From assembly GCA_051453625.1 (NCBI GenBank), contig JBOZIK010000001.1, forward strand, positions 47,994,801 through 48,043,028: 48,228 bases of DNA. The letters are read 5' to 3'. Shown piece by piece: positions 1,180-48,228 of this stretch. Source of the stretch: Welwitschia mirabilis (taxonomy: Eukaryota). The translations under genes and the position numbers were made by a program. How positions within the stretch are numbered: position 1 is the stretch's first letter; each line of letters opens with the position of its first letter. A model generated the notes under the pieces. The model saw only the letters and a list, made by a program, of their open reading frames with translations. It searched no databases and had not been told where the DNA came from.

Positions 1180-3591
1180 ATGTGACTGGATGCTGAGGGA
1201 GAGACCAAAAGGATAGTTGAAGAGATTTAAAATCAATATGATGTACTCTTTCTCTAATATTTCTATATAAAGGCTTAAACAATATTAAGACTTACATGAA
1301 GGACTAGAGAAATAAGGGCAATCAAAGACTTGAATTAAAAGAGGGTCTGGAGAAAGAATTATAAGAGATCTAAGCAGAACAGGAAAGTGGAGGCGATTAG
1401 GACATCCTTCGCAACAAGGAATATAGATGCCTTGTGATGCTTTAAGAAATAAACATGAATAAGAAGCGCTATTGGAGGGAAAGATCCAGAATTAAGTGGC
1501 TTAAAGAAGGGGATAATCATACTAAATAGTTATTCTAGCAAACTAACCAACACAAGATAAATAACAGAATTAGGAGGCTTACAATCAGGGAGTAAGTAAT
1601 TGATAATGAAGAAGATATGGCCAAGGAAATGCAGACCCACTTCAAGAACGTGTGGGAGTGGAAAGATATCACCCCGACCTTATTCCAGAAGACAAGAAAA
1701 TTTCTGATGAGGATAATGCTCACCTAATTAAACCACTAGTTAGAGAAGAATTCTAGATAACCTTGTAATATATAAAGAGCAATAGAGGTCTAGGGCCAAA
1801 TGGGTGGCCAGTAGAACTACTTAAGACCTATTTCTCCATTATGGAAGGTAACCTTCATGATGTTATGCAAGATTTTTAACAACAGATGCATTCTTATGGA
1901 GATGAATATAACTAGGGTTATTCTTATCCCTAATCACAGGACTATAGACCTCTAGGTATCTACAATGTTCTATATTGGATCTTCAAAAAAAATAATGGTG
2001 GGCCATATTTCCCCTCTTCTTTCCAAAGTGATCTTCGAGAACTAAGCTGGCTTCATCCATTTTAGGTACAAGATCAAGTCCTCCTAACTAATAAAATCAT
2101 TCATTCAGTTAAAAAGCATAACTTTTCTTTATGTATTACTAAATTAGACATAGTAAAAGCCTATGATTTTGTAATCTAAAAAACTTTAGGTTGTATCCTT
2201 AAGAAAATTAAATTTAACTCTAACATCACAAACTTATGGCTTGATATGTAAGCTTCTGCTAAGTTTATATTGGATGTTAACATCTATAGATGTAGATATT
2301 TTTTAGTAGGTTGAGGATTAAGGCAAGAGGATCCATTATCCCCATACCTCTTTCTATTCATTATGAACGTTTCATAGGGATTTCTCAGAAGCAATGCAGT
2401 CATAATAATTAAATTAAAATAGCAAGTCAAATGTTCATTAACAACCAATATGTAGATGACATAATTATTATAACTTAAACCTCCTGCCAACAGGCTAGAG
2501 CTATCAAAAATTCCATGAATCTCTTCACAGATGCTATAAGACTCCAAACTAATTGGAATAAGTCTCGAATTCATGTTTTTGACAAAAGCATCACCAAGAA
2601 GGATGAAATAGGCAGAATTTTAAACACCAAAATGGAAGATCTTCAAGACATCTACTTAGGAATTCCCCTTAGAAACTAGTATGAGTCTCTAACCTGTAAC
2701 TTTATCTTGAAGTGAATTCAAAGAAAATGAAATGCATGGCAGAATAAATTTTTCTCTTGGAAATCCAAGATCATCCCAGCAAATACCTAGCTAATTACAT
2801 CCTTCAGCTACATAGACTCTATTATCAATCCCTTTAAATTTATAATCAAAAAAATTAATAAAATGCTAAAGGACTTCATTTGATTGGAAGACAAGAATAG
2901 AAGACGCATCCACCTTTGTAAGTAGGAGCTCATTGCTCACCCCTAGTAGGTAGGAGGCTAGAGAATTCATAGTCCAGAAGATTGTCTCTTCACTAAAGCT
3001 CACAAAATAATCAAAAGACTACTTAAGGGTGGTCAATCATGGAGTGACCTACTCTATTATAAGTATCCAAGTTCAAGCTCAAGCGAAGGGGAGTTCCACC
3101 TTAGGAAATATCTTTCTAACATCAGAAGAAATCTGATAAAGCTAAACATCTCTAATGAAGACACAACCAAAATGATTTTCCTTATAAAATATGATAAAAA
3201 TAGGGCCTATAAAAGTTTTTAAGGGGGATGGATCCATGACAAGATTAAGATTTTCTACTAGTTGAAGGACTGCAATTGATTATTAATAAGAGATTAATTG
3301 CTTAAACGTGGCATTCAAGTTACTACTAATTGTTCAATCTGTCAGTCAAGTCAATAAGATGTACCACACCTATTTCATTAATGAAAATGGAGTCAAATTT
3401 AATGAAATTAATGAAAAATTACTAGAAGACTAGAAAAGTAATTAAGACACAATTGAAGGATAGGATAGGCCTGAGGTTGTGGTAGATATGGTGTACTCAT
3501 AATGATTTGATTTTCAATAATGCTCCTCTTTTCATTTCTTATAAATACTGTTAGGAGAATCAGATGGTACCATTCACAAATTTGGACAGCT
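1180..3591 (+). pseudogene. LINE ORF2 remnant (reverse transcriptase + zf-RVT), many stops and frameshifts
   Basis: Manual translation: RSRIKWLKEGDNHTK (~1482), GPNGWPVE (~1793), DYRPLGIYNVLY (~1940), KLDIVKAYDFV (~2141), GLRQEDPLSPYLF (~2315), QYVDD (~2446), YLGIPL (~2653), CSICQS..DVPHLF (~3331), W*IWCTHNDLIFNN (~3480). Confidence 0.92.
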
Positions 3592-4850
3592 ATGGAGGTC
3601 ACACCAACGTCTAAACTACTAAATCTGAGCTTGTTCGAAGGATATCTGATCCTTTGGGATAAGTTGCAGGCCCTAGGTTGGGAATCACTTTTACACAAAT
3701 TGAAAGGCGAGCCCAAGGCTGATATCACCCCATTCTACAGAAAATGGAAAGGGTACAAAATTACTTTTAGACAAATCTCAGTTAAAGTTACAGAAGAATC
3801 CCTTTCCTACCTGCTGGAAATCCCTATGGAATGGGAGAGAATTCCTCTCAAAAGTATAGAATAAAGGGAGGCTTCCCTTTTTTTTAGGAGGTGTCCCTAA
3901 GTTATCAAGTGGACACATTAGCCAGAAGGTGCTTTCTCCCCCGTAGGGTTTAGGTGTAAAGATCGTAGATAGATACTTCATTTAGTCTGGGTGTTGTTTT
4001 GAGCTTTTAAGGTTACACTTTATCTTTCTCAAGGCCTAATACCTAGGGAGTCAAGTTAATTTACCCCATTTCTTCATCTAAATGCTATGATGAAAGAATA
4101 TTATAAGGCATTTAGGACTTGTTATGGTCGTATGGAGAACCGCAAGGGATCTAAAAGTGAGGAGGCCCCCTCCCCTTTCCCTCGGCGAAGGGCTTCGAAT
4201 GATGCCTAGCAAACCAGAGGAAAAAAGAAGAAAAGAGATAAGAATGACAAAGATTCTCAACATGATGGGGATAATGAGCCAGGAGGCTCCCAGTTTCTAA
4301 GAAGGGCAACTCCACCTCCACCCCAAGAGACTCTTATAGAGGAAGTGATTCCATCCCCAATGCAGAAAGAGGGAAAATTCTAGTCTGAACTAGACCAAGA
4401 GTAAACCCCCGTAGAAGTGCAAGGAGAGGAGAATTTACATCCAGAGAAAGGCCAGGAGGACCCCCCTCAGAAGAATGTTGATAGCCCCAAACACAGTAAC
4501 CAGACAGAATCTCAGTCTAATTCTGAATCCACCTTAGAAGAATGAAATCAAGCAATACATGAGGATATTAACATGGATCATGCTAGGAGAGAGAAGTTTT
4601 GTTAGCCATAATCCATGGAATTAAGATGTGCTCTTTCTTAACCCTCATAATCTCTCATAGATTTCCATTAGATGTTATTAAATTAAGCTTTCAAAAGAAG
4701 ACCCTTAAACTTTATCCCAACAAAAACCAAGCAAGGGCAAAGGAATTTAAAGAGGTAAATTAGGCTTTCTAGGTCTTGGTAGATGAATTGGGATGATTCC
4801 TAATTTAGTACAAGCATAGCTACCTAATTCCTAATTACAAGGGATATTAA
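3592..4850 (+). pseudogene. LINE extra ORF ('ORF3') copy A: putative plant-transposon-protein-like domain, acidic/Pro-rich linker, C-terminal J-domain
   Basis: MEVTPTSKLL..LGWESLLHKLKGEPKADITPFY..VTEESLSYLLEIP..GLGVKIVDRYFI..QVNLPHF..RHLGLV; the C-terminus reads MCSFLTLIISHRFPLDVIKLSFQKKTLKLYPNKNQARAKEFKEVN*AF*VL..PNYKGY* (stop 4848-4850). Homologous to 23310-24528. Confidence 0.8.
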
Positions 4851-5400
4851 TCATATGCTTCTTATAGTTTAGATTAGTTCTTCTATAACTATGCCACGTT
4901 CTATTTTAGTCTTAGGAGCTAGGGATTTTCACCCTCATTTTTGTTGTTAACATATTATGTCTTATTTCTAGTATGTTTGCATAAATTTGTAGGCTGGTTT
5001 TTATCATTTCTAGATTTACATGTAATCCCCAATATAGGCGCTTTCATCACTCCTTATAACTATTACTCTTTTAATATAATACTTGGTTTCTTTTTCAAAA
5101 AGAGGAAAAAACAAAAAAGACCAACAGTAGCCAAAAAGCAATTTGCCAACCGCTTATTATCTAACTCCTCAACATCTGAGATTAGTTTTTGATCCCTCTT
5201 CGCTCAAGAATGGCTTTAACCAGACATATTAATTTTCAGCTTAAACTTTTATGGATGCTTCATGTTGATGAAACAACCAAATGAAACAACTTTTTTGAGG
5301 CTCTTGATTGAAAAGAGATTTCACCGAGTTGCAATAGCAGCTGCCTCATTAAATATCGCACGTGGAAGAGAAAATTTAGAAACAAGCGAAAGAAACGGAC

Positions 5401-19136: not shown

Positions 19137-20237
19137 ATGGAGAAGACTCGGCTCTTTAAGGAGGGAAAAACCCTAATCTTAGACATAGAGAAAGATGCAT
19201 GCTTAGAAAAATAAAGAAACTTCAATATAGTTTAATTGACAAGTTTGTTTCATCCAGCACAAGACGAAGACTCAATCTCATTAGAGACTCAATAGTCACA
19301 AAATGGATAGGGGTTAGTAAAGTTAAGGTAATATCCCTATCAAAAGGATTAGTTCTCTTCCAATTTGATAACAAATGGGATCAAGATGAGGTAATCATAA
19401 GAGGACCATGAATTTTCGGAGTTAGAGGGTTAGCCCTAGCTAAATAAATGTCACGGGTGCAATTGAACTTAAATCTAATTAAAAAGCTATCAATATGGAT
19501 TTTCATTCATAATTTTCCTCTAGAATTTTAGGATAAAGAACTATTAAAGAAAATTGCTTCTTAGTTTAAAGAATTAATAAAATTGGATAGGATAAACATA
19601 AAACAAATAAGGTTGCTCCTGGCAAGATATTGTATATCGATAAGTATTAAAAAAACAAAGGAAATTTAATACATGAAGTTTAGATTTAAATGGAGTACAT
19701 ACAATCTCAAAGTCACTTACAAGAACCTTCCAGTTATATGTGAGACATGTGGAAAGTCTAGGCACATCTTAGGAAGATGCATGATAGTAGAAAAGAGATA
19801 TTCCCATTGTGGGAGAAAAGGTTAAAAAAAGGATGAATGCAGAAAATATTTATTAACATCAAAGGAAAATAGAAGAATACATGCTCTTTTTATGATAAGA
19901 GAAGGCATAATCAGAATAATTACTAGTATAAACAAAAGAAAGATAAAATGGTAGAGAACACTACAGTCTATCCTAAAGAAAATAAGGAAAAGATCAAAGG
20001 ATATAATTCCTTTTAACAACTAATGGAGGAAGAGCCTAAAGGTACTCAGCAATGCCAGAATCCAATAAATACAAATGAGTTAAATAATGTTGAAATTCAA
20101 ATGAAGACAAACCTAGTAATAGAATTCTTTTAAACAAGAAAACCACAAAAATGGTGGCCAACAACTCCCAACTAACCAGCAAAGACATGTTGAAAAAAGG
20201 CCAAGGGGCCTCCAGAAAGGGGCAAAAACAAACTTGA
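19137..20237 (+). pseudogene. LINE ORF1 remnant (DUF4283 + zf-CCHC_4)
   Basis: SLIDKF..KWIG..SLSKGLVLFQFDNKWDQDEVIIRGP*IF..IWIFIHNFPLEF* and YKNLPVICETCGKSRHILGRC (~19718-19780). Confidence 0.85.
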
Positions 20238-23200
20238 TGAATTGTCTCACTTGAAGTTATAAGGGATTAGGGTCCTCCTATTAAAAAAAAAATTAGATAT
20301 TTGATCAATAAATTTAATATCAGCTTAGTCTATTTATAGAAAACAAATATGTGAGGTGTTATGAAATTAGATAATTTTTAGAAATAGTGGAACATTTTCA
20401 CCTCTACTATGTGAGGAAACGCAGGAGGTCTTATGACTCTTAAGAATAAAGAGGCAGAACTAGTTAACAGCAGTAAAAATCACTTAACTATATTTCTAAA
20501 AGAATAAGGATGAATCATTACAAATTTTTATGACTCTTAGAACAACCTAAACAAAGCCTCCATGTTGGAGGGCCTTCAGATGGTAGTAGCAGATAAGGCC
20601 AAGTGGCTAATAGTGGGGGATTTTAGTTAATGTCTCCACCATTAGGAGAAAATGGAGGGAAAAAATTAGAACAGTAGGGGAGTAGCAATTCTTAGATATT
20701 TTATGGTATAAAATACTTTATCAGACATACTGCTAATAGGATGCAAGTATACCTAGTCTAATAGAAGGACGGGAGGTAATCAGGTGATGTCTAGGATAGA
20801 CCAAATCCTTGCTGAAAAAGACATAGTAAAGCTTTTAATATAAGCTTGTGTTCTGAATAGAATGGCCTTAGATCATTAGCTAATTATATATAGAAAGGGG
20901 AGATAATGTCTCCTAGAGCCTCTTTCCAAATGAAATAGTATTAGATCACAAGTGCAAAAACCAAAAAGTTACTCGAGAATATCTGAAATTAATAAAATGG
21001 CATTCACCCTTTCACCTTTCTCTATAGAGGCTTAAACACCCTCAAAGCTCATATTAATAATTGGAAAAGGAAGAATAAGAAGAGATTCAAATCAAAAAAA
21101 TAGCTAGAGAAAGAGTTATAGAAAATTCAAGTTAAGCAAGAAGACAAAGAAGGTCAGGATTATATCCATAATAGAGAATATAGATGCCTCATGGAACTTT
21201 AAGAAATAAATGTAAATGAGAAAAATTATTAAAGAGAAAGATCAAGGATTAAATGACTTAAAAGGAGGGATACACATACCAAATTTTTCTTCTAGTAGGC
21301 TAACTATCACAGAGCAAATAACAGAATAAAAAGGCTTATCATTAGGGAATAGGTAATCGAAAATGAAGAGGAAATAACCAAGGAAATGCATATCCATCTC
21401 AAGGAAACATGGGAGTGGGACAATATTACCTATCCCAAAAGATAACAAAATTTCTGATAAGAATAATGCCCACTTAAGTAAACATTTAATCAAAGAAGAA
21501 ATTCAGTCAGCAATGAAATCAATGAAGAAAATATAGCTCTAGGATTACATCGTTGGCTAGTTAAATTTTTCAAGACCTACTTTCCTATTATGTAGAATAG
21601 TCTTCATAATGTAATGCAAGATATCCTTAATAGTAAACACATTCCCAAGGAGATAAATAGAAATAGGGTTATCCTCATCACCAAAAAATAGGACGCTTAT
21701 AGACCAAAAGGCTACAAACCATTAGGCATCTGCAATGTGCTATATAGAATCTTTGCAAAAATAATGATAGGCCATATCACCTCCCTGCTCCCCAAGGTAA
21801 TTTTTGAGAACCAATCTAGCTTCATCTGATTTAGGTACATTCAAGACCAAATTCTCCTAACTCACAAAATTATTCATTTTATTAAAAAGCATAAATTTCC
21901 TTTACTCATTATACAATTAGATATATAAAAGGCTTACAACTCTATTAGCTGATAATATTTAGGTTGTATTCTCAAAAAAACTGATTTCAATCAATACATC
22001 ATTAACTTATGCTTAGATATGTAATCTTCTGCTGAATTTAAATTGAAGGTTAATAGTTATATATCCAAATTTTTTTAGTAGGTTGAAGATTAAGATAAAG
22101 GGACCCTTTATCTGCATACCTCTTTATTTTTGTTATGAATGTTTTATAGGAATTTTTTAAAAGTAATGGAGTTACAAGCATCAAAATAGGAAGTTAAATG
22201 TTTATGAACAACCATGATGTTGATAACACAATTATCATGAATCAAGTCTCTTGCTAGTAAGCCAGAGCTATCAAGAACTCTATGAATCTTTTTGCAGAAG
22301 TCACAAGCCTCCAAATTAATTAGAATAAATTTAGAATTTACCTAGTAGATAAAAGCATAACTAGAAGGGGTGATATCGTCAAAATCCTAAATGCCAAATT
22401 AGGATATCTTTAGGATATCTACTTGGGAATCCCTCTATGGAATTCACATAAAACTCTAACTTGGAATTTCATCCTAGAATTAATCTAGAGGAGATGCAAT
22501 ATCTAGTAGAATAAATTCCTTTTGTCCAAAGCAAATATCATCTTAGTAAATACTTGTTTAATTTCTTCTTTCAAATACATTGCCTCTAATATTGCTCCTC
22601 CCCCTCCTTCCCCCAAAAGTTCATAATCAAAAAATCAATAGAATTTTGAAGACTTCATTTGATCAGGAGGTAAAAATAGAAGACATATTCATCTTTGTAA
22701 ATGGAAGCTTATTACTTGTCCTAAAGATTCAGGAGGTTGGAAAGTCTAAAGGTCAAAGGATTGCCTCCTCATAGGCACTCATAAAGTCCTCAAAAGACTT
22801 TTCATAGGAGGTTAACCTTGGAGTAACCTCATTAACTATAAGTACCCCACTTGAAGTTATGAAGGAGGGGAGTCCTATCTTAGAAAACACCTTTACAGTG
22901 CTAGAAGAAACTTGATGAACCTAAATATTTGTGGTGATGGCATAATCAAAATGATTCTTATCAATAAATATGGAAAAAATGAGACTTACAAAAATTTTTG
23001 AAAGAGACAAATTCTAGATAAAATTAAGATCTTTTGTTGGCTAAAGGATCATAACTGAATTCTCACCAGGGACTAACTTCTCAAGTATGGCATTAAAGTT
23101 AATTCTAACTATCCAATATGTCAATATTGTTAAGAAGATGCTCAACATCTTCTCAAATCAATGCAGATGAAGCTTAGAATTAATGATAGTTATGACAAGT

Positions 23201-23309
23201 TATTAGTGGTAGATTTGGTGCACTCACAATGAAGTAATATTCAATAATGTTTCACTTCCATTCATACAGCAAGAAAGATTAAATGGTATCATTTCCACAT
23301 AGGGCAGCA
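20237..23309 (+). pseudogene. LINE ORF2 remnant (EEP endonuclease, RT, zf-RVT)
   Basis: MNCLT*SYKGLG start; WLIVGDF (~20604); YT*SNRR..SRIDQIL; RSRIK*LK..DTHTKFF; YKPLGICNVLYRIFAK; LDI*KAY; DPLSAYLF; YLGIPL; W*IWCTHNEVIFNN. Confidence 0.92.
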
Positions 23310-24528
23310 ATGGAGCAACTCTAACAATTAAACTATTAGATCCAGACTCATTAGAAGGGTGTCCTATGCTCTAAGACAAGGTATAGGATGGGGAGATCTC
23401 CTACACAAGTTAAAAGAAGAACCTAAGGCTGATATCACCTATTCTACAAAAGATGGAGAGGGAAAAGAGCCACAATCAGAAGAGTTTTCATCGACACTAC
23501 AAAAGACTACATTTCTCACTTTTGGACATTCCAATGGTAGGGAAAAGAATCCCCCTTAAGAGAAGAAAGTACTGGAAGCCTCCTACTTCTTCCCAGGTAG
23601 CATTCCAAAACTAGCTAGTCATTATATTAGTCATAAGATGCTTTTGCCCCCATGGGGCCTAGGGGTTAAGATGATATATCGCTACTTTATTCACTCTTGC
23701 TATTGTTCAAAACTGTCAGGGCTGCATTTCACCTTTCTCAAGGCCTTAGACTTGGGGTATCAAGTTAACCTTCCCCACTTCTCTATTCAAGTGCTTCAAC
23801 AAAAAGATTCAACGAGGCATTTAGGACTAGTTATAGCTATTTAAAAGACTACTAAGGACCAGAGGATAAGAAAGGCCCCTTCTCCCCCTCCTCCTCAGTG
23901 ATAGAATTTAGTGGAGACTTCTTCTAAGAAAAAAAAAATCAAAGAAAAGGACAAAAACTAATGAGGATTCTCATTCCGAGAAGGATTTCAAGTAAAGAAG
24001 CCCCCATTCTTAGAGAGAGATGACTCTGTCCTTGGAAGTCCAAGCAAAGAAGGAGATCTCATCCCCAATGTGAAAAGAGATAATTCAAGAAGACTCCCCA
24101 GCTGAAGCCAAGGATCAGCATCAAAGACCTCTAGAGCAAGGCCAAAAGACCCCCTCTTAGAAGGTAGAAAGTAGTTTCAATTATAGTTAGGAGTTAAATT
24201 GCTACTTCCACTTAGGTTCCTCCCTTAAAGATTAAAATTAAGATCCCCGTAAAGACATTGACATGGATCACGCAAAAACAAAAGTCTTACTAGCTACCAG
24301 TCATGGTCTAAAAATATGCCCCTTATTGACCCTAGGAGTTTCACATAGATCTTACCTGTAAGCCATTAATTTAAATTACCAAAAGAATGCTCTCAAGGCA
24401 AGAACCAAATAGTAGCTAGGTAGTTTAAGGAAGTAAACCAGGCATTTGAGGTATCAGTAAGTGAAATAGGTCGCTTTCTGGTTAAGCACCATCACAGTAA
24501 CCTCTCACCTAATTATAGGGGATATTAA
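23310..24528 (+). pseudogene. LINE extra ORF ('ORF3') copy B with C-terminal J-domain
   Basis: GWGDLLHKLKEEPKADIT..PPWGLGVKMIYRYFIHS..QVNLPHF..RHLGLV; the C-terminus reads ICPLLTLGVSHRSYL*AINLNYQKNALK[10-nt deletion]KNQIVAR*FKEVNQAFEV..PNYRGY* (stop 24526-24528). Confidence 0.82.
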
Positions 24529-27500
24529 TCCTCTATTTCTTCAAGTTATACATAGTTGTTTTTTAGTATTTTCTAGTCCATTATTAAGTTCAATAGTTAG
24601 TGGTATTTTCACCCCCACTTTTGCTTTATACCCAATAGGTTCTCATGATTTCTGTAGTTTGGTTTTTGCTTTACCAGTCAGGATTTTTATTCCCCTCAAT
24701 ATAAGGAATTTTCTCTCCCCATGTAAATTTTATTTTAATATAATTCTCTTTTTTTTTTAAAAAAAAAGNNNNNNNNNNNNNNNNNNNNNNNNNNNNNNNN
24801 NNNNNNNNNNNNNNNNNNNNNNNNNNNNNNNNNNNNNNNNNNNNNNNNNNNNNNNNNNNNNNNNNNNNNNNNNNNNNNNNNNNNNNNNNNNNNNNNNNNN
24901 NNNNNNNNNNNNNNNNNNNNNNNNNNNNNNNNNNNNNNNNNNNNNNNNNNNNNNNNNNNNNNNNNNNNNNNNNNNNNNNNNNNNNNNNNNNNNNNNNNNN
25001 NNNNNNNNNNNNNNNNNNNNNNNNNNNNNNNNNNNNNNNNNNNNNNNNNNNNNNNNNNNNNNNNNNNNNNNNNNNNNNNNNNNNNNNNNNNNNNNNNNNN
25101 NNNNNNNNNNNNNNNNNNNNNNNNNNNNNNNNNNNNNNNNNNNNNNNNNNNNNNNNNATATATATAGTATTAATAATATTACATAAAAAAATAATATTAA
25201 AGTACACACTTCTTAAGTAAGTGATCAAAAGAATTTCACTTATTATCTAAGAACAAAGGCCTTAATAATAAAAGCATAAATTATACTTTATTAAAGAACA
25301 TTTAAAAAGATAATATAAAATGAAATTATTTTTAATATTATCCTTTTTAAATTATTTAATTGTTACAATAATTTTATTGAATAAATTTTATATGATTAAC
25401 GACATTAATTATAGATTTATTTTACCTTTATAAGAGATGTTATACTAAAAATTAATACTTTATTTTTTTACACTAAAAGATAAATTATGATAAATATTAT
25501 TAAAGTAGACTTATGATATAGTCTCTAGAAATTAACTTTATCAAGTTTAGATTCCTATAGTTATATTTTCTAAGATTATAATATAATTGTAAAGATTATT
25601 TAAATTTTTAGAGTTATTAAATTACCACACCACATTAAAAAGGTTATAACTTTTAAAATACTTCAAATTATTAAGTGATTGAGAACTCCCTAAAAATATT
25701 ATTTAATTATCTATAATGTAGACTAGCCATTTATTACAAACTATAAATTATTAATTTTATAACTAAAATAAATTACTTGTTATTTTCTATTTTATTTTAA
25801 GTTATTTCATAAAATAATTTTTAAAAATGTACTAGATCTTTAAAAAAAATACTATTTTTAAATTTATAATCTTAAAATACTTTTAAAATTACCAAAAAAA
25901 ATCTCATTAAACTTTATTTAATATATAAGAGTTTATAATATTTTTAAGTTATGCCACCTTTTGAGAATTTTGAACTTTAGCTATAATATAAACATAAAAA
26001 TATAGAAATAAATTTAAGAAACTATAGTTGATAAAATTAATATAAATATCTAATATAAATAGTCCATGTAATATAAAAAATAAATTTTAACTACTCCAAA
26101 TCAACATCAGTTAAGGAAAAGTAATGTGTAAGATTAATTTAAAATAAACAAATTCAATGAGCCTTAGGATTAACATAAAGGAGTAGCTAGCGTAAATGAG
26201 ATTAAGGATCAGATAATTAATCCTAAGTAGAGGATTGTGATGCATATTTGATACATAATAAAACTATAAAAATCATTCAATCTTTCATAATGCACAATGA
26301 AAATGATTACCTCAATATTAAATAGAATTCCTTGATCCCTTGGCCAAAATTTTCCATTGGTAATCTTATCAACTAAATATGTAAAGAGATTTCTCAAACC
26401 TCTCCATCTTCTTGATTTGAATCTAATGGAATAAATAATCTTATTAAAATAAATTTTACAATAAGCATATGTAATGACCTAAAGCAATAATATAGCATGC
26501 CACTAACATTCTTAAAAATGAAAAAAAATAAGTAGAGGAAACCTACTTGAAAATGTAATGATTAAAAATTTCTATGAGATAAAGAATGGATTAGGTTAAT
26601 TTATAAGTTCTAATTTTGAAGTTCTANNNNNNNNNNCTAGTATCCGAGCTCTAAGCTCCAAGCTCTATACTTCAAACCAAGAGGATGAAAAAGAAACAAG
26701 ATAAACATGAAAGAATGAGAAGGAAATCTAATAGCATGAACTTTTATAAAAATGAAAAAATTGATTTACAAGAGAGGAAAGGGCTTTATTTATAGTAAAT
26801 AATAAGCTAAATTTCTTTGATTTAATTAGTTAAAAACCCTTAACATAATTGTATTCATAAGGTAATATTATCATATTAAATTAGGTAAGATTACCCATAT
26901 TGAATTAGATAAGATTAATTATTTATTAATTGGACGAGCTTAAGTAATAAGTGACATTGATGTATGAATTATATGAACACATTATCTTTATAACTCATAT
27001 ACCTCCTATCCAAGATGATTAATACTCTTACCTTAATAAACAAGGTCAATTACATACCTCAGTTCCTCATCCTAGTTCCTTTTTAATTCTTCATAGGCTC
27101 ATAACCATATTTAACCAATTCAAAAACATAATTTAAATAATGAGTAATATGCATTAAAGGAACACTGATGCACAAATTTCAAAACTACCATGTGTAATAA
27201 TGAGATAATTTTTTCAACCCCAATAATGAATAAAATAAATATTTTATAAACTAATTAATTTTATAAATATCAAGAATCATAAAAATCATGGGAGAGTAAA
27301 ATATACTCTTTCATTCTTATTAGTTTAGAGATAAGAGTACACATCCTTATTCAAATGATCATTAATTTCAAGATATATCAAATTCATTAACAAAAACATA
27401 AAAAAGAAAGTATCATAATAGAATGGAGTACACTCAATCTTGTTATCTACTTCTTTTATCAACTATATTACTCATTTATTCTTACTAAGTATTTTCATTT

Positions 27501-31078: not shown

Positions 31079-31549
31079 NNNNNNNNNNAAACTGAAATAG
31101 AACTAGTCCATCTAGAAAAGTAATAACTTGTACTTTAGAGACCCCTATTTACTTAGTGGCCTCTAAGTCCTTAATCATGTATAACCACGGCCCCAAACCA
31201 GAAGAAACGATTTTTCCTAGAAGTCTAAACTAAAACCTATTTTGCATTTTTACACATGCAACATCATCTATATCCAAGACTAGAGTTCTCTCATCTCTAG
31301 AGAACTTAGCTTTCTCCATTGCAGGGTGAAGTCCTAAGATAAGAATACCATAAAAATAACACAACGTAATAACTTAATAAAAACAACCCTTACCTGGATA
31401 GTCTCTTGTCAGAACTAGAACTACTTACATCCCCCTGTACCTTACAGTTCCTCTATGCTGCCATCATTATTGTCCCTTCTCTAGGCCACTTTTGCTCTTT
31501 GCAATTTCACCTAGTGCTCTCCTAGGTTAGGATTATTTTGAAGACGCAC

Positions 31550-47243: not shown

Positions 47244-48228
47244 CTACAGTGTTCTACTGCAAGTGCACTAGAGTAAATATTCCCAAGAGGGACCTTTGAT
47301 AGTGTAATATGATAGCTATGAAAATTCCACTGAGGGGTTAGTTGGCCATAATCTAGATATATATAGAAAAAAAAAATCCTATGGGTCATTACTCCTTTGA
47401 TAGTGGTTACACATTTCTTATCGTGGTTAACTTAAGTTGTGAAAAATAAAAAGTTGAGAAAAATTTATGTTGTAGGAGTCATCTGAAACAAAGTTAGCTA
47501 CTAAAACTCTAACTCTATTACAACTTATTAAAAATGAAGAAAAAAGGATTAAGAGAGAAAAGAAACCAGAAGANNNNNNNNNNATTCAATAGCATGCATA
47601 ATCATTAAATTCTATTTGAACTAAGGGAAAGCTTTAAAGTTTTACAATTATTTTGCATTATCTTAACAATTTAATAAATTGTCTAGTTTGAATTTCCTTT
47701 AATGAAATTGATGTGCCCATGATAACATAAAATAGTATAAGAAACTTCATCTGAAATAAAAATAAAAAATTTTATTAAGTAAAATAGTTTATTACATCTA
47801 GTTGCAGAATAATAGTAAAAACACTTCTTAAATTACTAATCAAGTAAATTTCAAACTCAATTAACTCAATTATTANNNNNNNNNNNNNNNNNNNNNNNNN
47901 NNNNNNNNNNNNNNNNNNNNNNNNNNNNNNNNNNNNNNNNNNNNNNNNNNNNNNNNNNNNNNNNNNNNNNNNNNNTCAAACTCAATTAACTCAATTATTA
48001 TAACAATCAGAAAATTTATTCCTCCTGTGAGAATAACTAGTCTTAGATGTTGACCCTATAGAATTCTTACCTAGAAGCAATAGATGCATCTCACCTAGAG
48101 ATTTTAATAGTATATTAATCTCCTCTAGGTGGGATTGCCAAAAGTTTTGATAAGGCTTAGCATTCCATATTGTCTTCTATATATTTTTTTTTTTTGTCAA
48201 AACTTAATGCAGCAAGACTAAGAATAGG

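Follow-up and report, generated by a model that had tools for sequence, protein, structure and literature searches.

A probable 3' coding module with a J domain, once under purifying selection, in a decayed plant L1-type LINE of Welwitschia mirabilis

Two decayed LINE copies and their 3' module

The stretch of Welwitschia mirabilis DNA analysed here (the window: 48,228 nt, assembly GCA_051453625.1, contig JBOZIK010000001.1, positions 47,994,801 to 48,043,028 of the forward strand) carries two decayed copies of one plant L1-type long interspersed nuclear element (LINE) family, copy A at ~1229-5105 and copy B at ~19160-24768. We describe the region 23310-24528 of copy B, which follows the RT and zf-RVT of the second open reading frame (ORF2) and is very probably the 3' coding module of this extinct family and not a transduced flank. 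The module comprises an N-terminal part (N-part), a core, a linker and a C-terminal J domain. While the lineages of copies A and B diverged, purifying selection acted on N-part, core and J domain as strongly as it did on the reverse transcriptase (RT); both copies died and decayed afterwards. A blastn search of the region against the whole window returned one relative, copy A. The window is AT-rich (GC content of 20-39% in 2-kb steps) and includes 12 assembly gaps; long ORFs listed across its runs of N are artefacts. All features given below lie on the + strand unless stated otherwise.

In copy B, the N-part (23310-23584) begins at an ATG common with copy A (A 3592) and contains three frameshifts. 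It is followed by a core of ~98 codons (23586-23880) with one in-frame stop, by a linker rich in K, E, P and S (23885-24273) and by a decayed J domain (24274-24528), which is homologous to the DnaJ part of copy A and closes with a TAA at 24526-24528. The N-part of copy A (3592-3864) is open up to the TAA at 3862-3864, within an ORF that spans 3511-3864. Its core (3877-4171) has six in-frame stops and forms an ungapped block with B 23586-23880, its linker occupies 4172-4583, and the J domain with a short C-terminal tail lies at 4586-4850, where YPN stands in place of the His-Pro-Asp (HPD) tripeptide and the TAA is at 4848-4850. The two cores share 54% amino-acid identity and are probably helical; the linkers are 52-60% identical. 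Beyond the stop, an untranslated tail of ~240-270 nt can be aligned between the copies to their A-rich ends (B 24529-24768, with a short A-run at 24757-24768; A 4851-5117).

Both copies are colinear from RT through module and 3' tail to the A-rich end, and their homology ends at the element ends. The blastn alignment covers B 21176-23834 against A 1419-4125 with 67.3% identity in 2751 columns and B 24254-24547 against A 4564-4869 with 63.4% identity, while a global MAFFT alignment of A 1229-5110 and B 20986-24768 gives 66.6% identity over 3731 aligned columns in 33 ungapped blocks. The ORF1 region and the 5' part of the element are found in copy B, and copy A lacks both. For copy A, a candidate target-site duplication pairs 5103-5117 with 973-987 (15 nt, one mismatch); it is A-rich and possibly due to chance, and 973-987 sits ~240 nt upstream of the first detectable homology of the copy. 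A run of 389 N (24769-25157) begins directly after the A-run of copy B, so that the length of its poly(A), its 3' flank and its target-site duplication are unreadable.

The RT core of copy B (21623-22177), read through with X at stops, matches Pfam RVT_1 (E=1.3e-11, 45.1 bits). Its zf-RVT at 22966-23163, the canonical end of ORF2, matches at residues 263-328 of P0002, the copy B read-through of the RT C-terminus plus module (E=1.6e-6, 29.1 bits, cut-off 27.5). In copy A, the 5'-truncated RT and zf-RVT (1229-3381) align to B 20986-23163, and Pfam recognises the zf-RVT at residues 272-323 of the copy A read-through, P0003 (E=1.7e-4). RT followed by zf-RVT is the arrangement of a plant L1-type LINE. 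RNase H is absent from the Pfam matches of P0002 and P0003 (E<=0.01). The nearest database proteins to P0002 are LINE-type ORF2 proteins with RVT_1 and/or zf-RVT, at 21-26% identity; these relatives (10 of near length and 3 longer) cover only the RT/zf-RVT part, 22-35% of the query, and the four with source names are all from plant species or carry typical plant-LINE labels. Further upstream, copy B retains a DUF4283-like remnant of ORF1 at 19160-19411 (Pfam E=2.6e-4, 21.1 bits, under the 27.2 cut-off) and, in the ORF 19670-19825, a CCHC-like knuckle that was spotted by eye and has no Pfam match. In the heavily decayed region 20036-20988, none of the three + frames matches a Pfam family at E<=0.01, APE-type endonuclease included.

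Purifying selection on N-part, core and J domain

The first-pass annotation had compared the two copies at four short peptides and taken their synonymous differences as a trace of purifying selection across an ORF3. The four codon strings are indeed present in the claimed frames: GLGVK (A 3947-3961, B 23656-23670), RYFI (A 3971-3982, B 23680-23691), QVNLPHF (A 4052-4072, B 23761-23781) and FKEVN (A 4746-4760, B 24424-24438). Over these 21 codons the copies differ at 14 nucleotides, and every difference is synonymous. Because these strings were hand-picked, whole segments were tested, using the ratio of nonsynonymous to synonymous differences per site (pN/pS, Nei-Gojobori) with bootstrap 95% intervals; the comparison is that of one pair of decayed copies and not of subfamily consensuses.

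For the pooled RT (533 codons) pN/pS is 0.31 (0.25-0.36), and the module reaches similar values, with 0.28 in the core (98 codons, 0.20-0.40), 0.28 in the J domain (64 codons, 0.18-0.41) and 0.38 in the N-part (85 codons, 0.27-0.54). In contrast, the linker (127 codons) and the 3' tail (74 codons) give 0.96 and 0.97. The first-pass annotation had named a dN/dS close to 1 in the N-terminal and J segments as the outcome that would speak against selection; on the A/B pair the values are the 0.38 and 0.28 just given, well below 1. In copy B the J domain gives 0.27 in its first piece (24274-24396) and 0.28 in its second (24397-24528). Read out of frame, core and J yield 0.64-2.0. Thus, the proposed selection holds for N-part, core and J domain but not for the linker, where ~130 codons carry no detectable constraint. 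Its three phases give 0.57-0.96 in copy B, without periodicity (p=0.32-0.37), and 0.63-0.94 in copy A.

The same picture emerges when no frame is assumed. Mismatches between the copies fall 51/31/22 by position modulo 3 in the core block (B 23586-23880) and 9/27/11 in the J block (B 24274-24396), and in both the excess is at the third position of the frame of the quoted peptides (p=0.0017 and 0.0036, respectively). By codon position, the core counts are 31/22/51 for all mismatches (p=0.0017) and 9/2/20 for transversions (p=3.5e-4); the N-part, measured in the frame of copy A, has 22/24/42. The masking of C>T and G>A sites that had been advised was run as a transversions-only count, and the excess stays, with 14/8/33 at codon positions 1/2/3 for core plus J (p=9.2e-5). 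The 3' tail shows no periodicity (27/28/31, p=0.86; pN/pS 0.68-0.97). A six-frame comparison places the + strand frame best in every segment, with the wobble-matched antisense frame second, as in the RT. A sliding-window scan draws the same segment map, with signal from the RT to the N-part, none in the linker and signal again in the J domain, and the TAA common to both copies (B 24526-24528, A 4848-4850) marks the point where the coding signal ends.

Neutral simulations (1000 per segment) that kept the mismatch count and the substitution spectrum and took the best of three phases have a pN/pS baseline of ~0.6, not 1. Values as low as those observed appeared in 0/1000 simulations for the core, 1/1000 for J helix I-II and 31/1000 for the rest of the J domain. 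The RT block, as positive control, gave 0/1000, and the negative controls gave 902/1000 (3' tail) and 705/1000 (linker, B 24081-24273). Hypermutable third positions do not explain the excess, since GC content at third codon positions is about that at first positions (GC3 ~ GC1) and the third-position excess is present within each of the four base classes. Stratified by base, the Cochran-Mantel-Haenszel p is 8e-11 for core plus J, 3e-17 for RT, 0.003 for the N-part and 0.95 for linker plus tail.

The annotation had also called the two copies independent, and this is borne out by the end of homology at the element ends, by the missing 5' part of copy A and by the RT itself, whose pN/pS of 0.31 means that copy B is not a mere duplicate of a dead copy. 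Such selection implies that the protein was made and mattered; what it did does not follow from it. As an example of method, two dead copies suffice to read past selection when RT and 3' tail serve as internal controls.

Translation and origin of the module

The distance from zf-RVT to N-part is only ~150 nt. In copy B it includes the ORF2 tail at 23206-23309, with IFNN... and I-K-W-Y-H motifs, in which small indels break the frame. The tail blocks 23206-23257 and 23258-23299 show a mismatch excess at the third position, and the corresponding tail in copy A (3539-3591) has a pN/pS of 0.24 over 16 codons. Copy A has no stop from 3511 to 3861, from the ORF2 tail into the N-part, and in both copies the frame of the N-part is that of RT and zf-RVT. 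From these features of the sequence, the module would be a C-terminal extension of ORF2, a reading that we slightly favour. The name ORF3 used in the first annotation therefore stands only in part: the ATG is kept in both copies, but a separate frame is not borne out, as the N-part of copy A continues the ORF2 frame.

Two observations count against the extension. N-part and core are in different frames in copy A as well as in copy B, and the alignment gap that separates them is only 1 nt long. The N-part/core spacer measures 25 nt in A (3853-3877) and 26 nt in B (23561-23586), neither a multiple of three. A continuous ancestral ORF thus needs two nearby indels, and an ancestral frame change only one. 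Just upstream of the core, each copy has stops in the core frame. The spacer of A contains eight T in a row at a place where B mixes C and T, a difference consistent with C>T decay.

An alternative that we consider rather unlikely, while giving it real weight, is that ORF2 ends after the IFNN/IRWYH tail and that an independent ORF3 starts from the common ATG (A 3592, B 23310). In a variant of it, core, linker and J domain would be a separate ORF in the other frame, reached through reinitiation or frameshifting. The retention of this ATG in both copies fits such a start, as does a TAG at 23300-23302 of copy B, in the IFNN frame and 7 nt ahead of the ATG; the closing of the N-part frame at TAA 3862-3864 in copy A and the frame change before the core, which asks for fewer events if ancestral, agree with the variant. 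Opposed to both is the frame of copy A, which crosses from the ORF2 tail over the ATG without a stop and with unbroken third-position periodicity (pN/pS 0.24, then 0.28). Moreover, the A/B comparison reveals no conserved ATG at the core start. Finally, if the N-part is Transposase_32-like, as a lead from the ESM Atlas described below suggests, and if the core, which the lead does not cover, makes up the remainder of such a domain, both would belong to one ORF.

Returning to the module as part of the LINE, whichever way it was translated, its origin can be asked of the wider family. In two DNA sequencing runs, 12979 and 13689 contigs match copy B at >=80% likeness. Summed depth, which is contig depth and not copy number, is 547-635 in the core bin, 268-460 in the J bins and 87-120 in the linker bins, and single positions of core and J are covered by 38-98 contigs in run X1, comparable with RT positions. 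The module is thus shared well beyond copies A and B and forms part of a highly repetitive family. Two RNA runs gave 84 and 30 reads on copy B, mostly <90% alike and partial, too few and too unlike for an inference on expression. Sequencing runs under two coded organism labels (A and B) contain 0.65-0.77 of the sampled words of 23310-24528, and no RNA run is among those listed as containing it; the dead insertion that is copy B is therefore present under both labels, which may stand for close relatives or for one species.

These counts bear on the idea that the two copies gained their modules separately from two selected host paralogues, or were converted by them. Such a history would produce a low A/B pN/pS with no LINE-encoded function, and no external homologue was retrieved that would exclude a host source. 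We hold it very improbable, as the junctions are identical on both sides (ORF2 tail to N-part; common stop to homologous tail and A-rich end), the pS of the module matches that of the RT, and the module recurs, at >=80% likeness, in dozens of contigs.

Slightly less probable still is passive cargo, in which a fragment of a host J protein was picked up through 3' transduction or template switching, was never translated by the element and shows a codon pattern that is a leftover. LINEs do transduce their 3' flanks, the J domain belongs to the ordinary cellular type (DNAJA1, dnj-12 and Sis1 are its best matches in the PDB), and linker and tail evolved neutrally, all of which suit this idea. A leftover pattern, however, cannot bias the differences between copies towards synonymous sites, and these give 0.28 in core and J against 0.97 in the tail; the claim that the region was once a selected protein and not passive 3' flank is upheld on this contrast. 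With GC3 close to GC1 and an excess in each base class, hypermutable third positions fail here as well. In addition, pS is 0.77-0.85 in core and J and 0.71 in RT, so that the module diverged over the same time and in the same regime. That chance or an alignment artefact in an AT-rich, 67%-identical pair made the signal is close to negligible, for although core and J domain span no more than 98 and 64 codons, the choice of frame came after looking and the neutral baseline is ~0.6, the best-of-three-phases null gives 0/1000 and 1/1000 for core and J, both blocks are ungapped, the frame agrees with an independent Pfam DnaJ match, and negative controls in the same alignment carry no signal.

The J domain and its possible role

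The read-through of copy A at 4590-4847 matches Pfam DnaJ (PF00226) with 28.8 bits (cut-off 27.8, E=1.4e-6, profile positions 6-56 of 63). A PDB phmmer search with the J region of this copy returned 32 sequences at E<=1, mostly J-domain proteins, with dnj-12 as the best (E=1.3e-4); its HPD is aligned to the YPN of copy A, and further alignments are to DNAJA1 and Sis1. Copy B retains the helix-I string CPLLTLGVS that had been noticed earlier (24317-24343). The reported loss of its HPD codons needs a small correction: the deletion of 10 nt between 24396 and 24397, where copy A has 4709-4718, took out the codons for Leu-(His/Tyr)-Pro plus one more base, but the codon of the Asp position stays, as GGC. 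Both deviations of copy A from HPD are single transitions of C>T or G>A type, and an ancestral HPD is plausible on this sequence comparison.

J domains that bear HPD bind Hsp70 and stimulate its ATPase. We propose an architecture of an N-part of ~90 codons behind RT and zf-RVT, a core of ~98, a fast-evolving K/E/P-rich linker of ~130, a C-terminal J domain and a stop, translated from a downstream ORF or, as we slightly prefer, as an extension of ORF2. An ancestral J domain that was functional and bore HPD would have recruited host Hsp70 and stimulated its ATPase on a protein or ribonucleoprotein (RNP) of the element, which may have helped its folding, assembly, remodelling or transport. N-part and core would be the client-binding or RNP-binding end that ties this activity to the LINE protein or RNP, with the unconstrained linker serving as a flexible tether. 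In this sense, the family may have been a LINE with its own J-domain co-chaperone, made of a retroelement-accessory-like domain (possibly Transposase_32/Athila-ORF1-like), a disordered linker and a C-terminal J domain, under selection of RT strength; we advance this tentatively, as a possibility with somewhat more against it than for it.

Several findings weigh against reading the region as a coding module of the element with a working J domain. The HPD tripeptide is in neither copy, being YPN in A and deleted in B, and an Asp codon is one of two equally parsimonious ancestors at its position. The two J pieces of copy B give no Pfam DnaJ match on their own, and the tie of this copy to the DnaJ family is solely via its alignment with copy A. 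None of the 13 RT-level relatives of P0002 has a DnaJ domain. The linker is constrained in no frame. An exhaustive phmmer search of P0001 (the copy B read-through, with ~50 residues from B 23438-23585 out of frame and the 98-codon core in frame) against 1.84 billion representative proteins found no match. A shuffle within codon position and base class reached the observed value in 4/2000 cases for core plus J and in 17/2000 for the non-coding tail; flagging the tail too, it is non-specific and was not relied on. Stops number 29 per 667 and 27 per 484 read-through codons, and what can be read are two copies, both stop-riddled and frameshifted, with no intact copy, transcript or protein.

Other searches for relatives of N-part and core returned little. 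The word-index search of P0001 yielded 519 candidates, none of them scored. At E<=10, Pfam gave no relevant family for pieces of N-part, core and linker, and the PDB gave matches at chance level only (E 0.25-1.8) with profile A2 and the copy A N-part. The ESM Atlas had no usable match for the copy B core, and AlphaFold2 on the two-sequence core alignment produced a model with a mean predicted local distance difference test score of 39.2, which is unusable. For the N-part of copy A, the Atlas gave a recognition value of 2757. Its 30 entries include clusters without a name, at 0.92-0.93, and in 21st place a Streptophyta cluster with 175 shared features and a score of 0.91, 49% of whose members bear PF20167. 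A likeness of the N-part to Transposase_32 is thus a lead from language-model features, and the N-part is possibly of this type; Pfam lists no family at E<=10, Transposase_32 included, for A 3511-3864 and B 23560-23844. A likeness of the core to PMD/Transposase-type plant domains was also considered. Pfam lends it no support, and only the Atlas lead of the N-part points there.

In the usual description, a LINE encodes no more than ORF1p and an endonuclease-RT ORF2p; plant L1 ORF2 with RNase H was reportedly treated by Smyshlyaev et al. in 2013. In two papers, the ORF2 C-terminus is said to tolerate added domains, namely RNase H in plant L1 and a superfamily 1 (SF1) helicase in insect R1 (PMC4686597, PMC5203782). 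Plant L1 with a C-terminal RNase H (PMC5203782, PMC4686597) resembles our case in having RT and zf-RVT with a selected extra module after the ORF2 end. It differs in that here N-part, core, linker and J domain are found, and no RNase H family in P0002 or P0003. The tobamovirus-like SF1 helicase of insect R1 is likewise a foreign C-terminal domain of ORF2 behind a spacer (PMC4686597), but it belongs to another LINE clade, host kingdom and domain type, and was found in intact ORFs, unlike the two dead copies here.

Looking beyond LINEs, polyomavirus T antigens are products of a selfish element whose own J domain engages host Hsc70/Hsp70 (PMC8567380, PMC1945078), and by analogy the LINE module might have done so too. 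The analogy is proposed for function; a common descent was neither looked for nor seen. The viral J domain is N-terminal and encoded by a DNA virus, whereas the present one is C-terminal and in a non-LTR (long terminal repeat) retrotransposon. Among cellular proteins, the class A/B J proteins DNAJA1, dnj-12 and Sis1 match best, over helix II, the HPD loop and helix III, and the short loop after HPD in copy A resembles that of DNAJA1 and dnj-12. In these proteins an N-terminal J domain is followed by glycine/phenylalanine-rich (G/F) and client-binding domains; in contrast, the J domain here is C-terminal, stands behind an unrelated module and has lost HPD. PF20167 has been linked with Athila ORF1 in work on sunflower (PMC11728184, section 2.5). 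The extra-ORF proteins of Transposase_32/Athila ORF1-like type that it treats would be alike in being accessory, non-enzymatic proteins of plant retroelements, with the Atlas lead as the only link. They are unlike in being described from Ty3/gypsy LTR elements and not from LINEs, and N-part and core have no Pfam match. Chaperones and a DnaJ homologue have been reported from human L1 ORF1p interactome and RNP preparations (PMC3753637).

We found no description of a LINE-encoded J domain in the literature, with Repbase, Dfam, subscription journals and supplements lying outside the search. The word 'DnaJ' is likewise absent from the accessible text of PMC5203782, of PMC4686597 and of a review of plant LTR-element extra ORFs. 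A LINE with an accessory C-terminal module is thus already known, and a J-domain accessory was not found described. The known additions to LINEs are few and each is informative; a selected J domain would be of another kind, a chaperone handle and not a nucleic-acid enzyme. If the co-chaperone proposal is true, direct recruitment of host Hsp70, as in polyomaviruses, would extend to a non-LTR retrotransposon, which bears on the folding, assembly and movement of LINE proteins and RNPs.

Two further traces of LINEs occur in the window, both on the - strand. At 31089-31320 lies a third ORF1-like fragment, which tblastx relates to B 19137-19366 (the DUF4283 region) with 38-53% identity (E=2e-11), and neither RT nor module adjoins it. 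Near the window end, a 51-nt match of 78% identity at 47655-47704 corresponds to B 23091-23141 in the zf-RVT region and, from this sequence likeness, is probably a further small LINE fragment.

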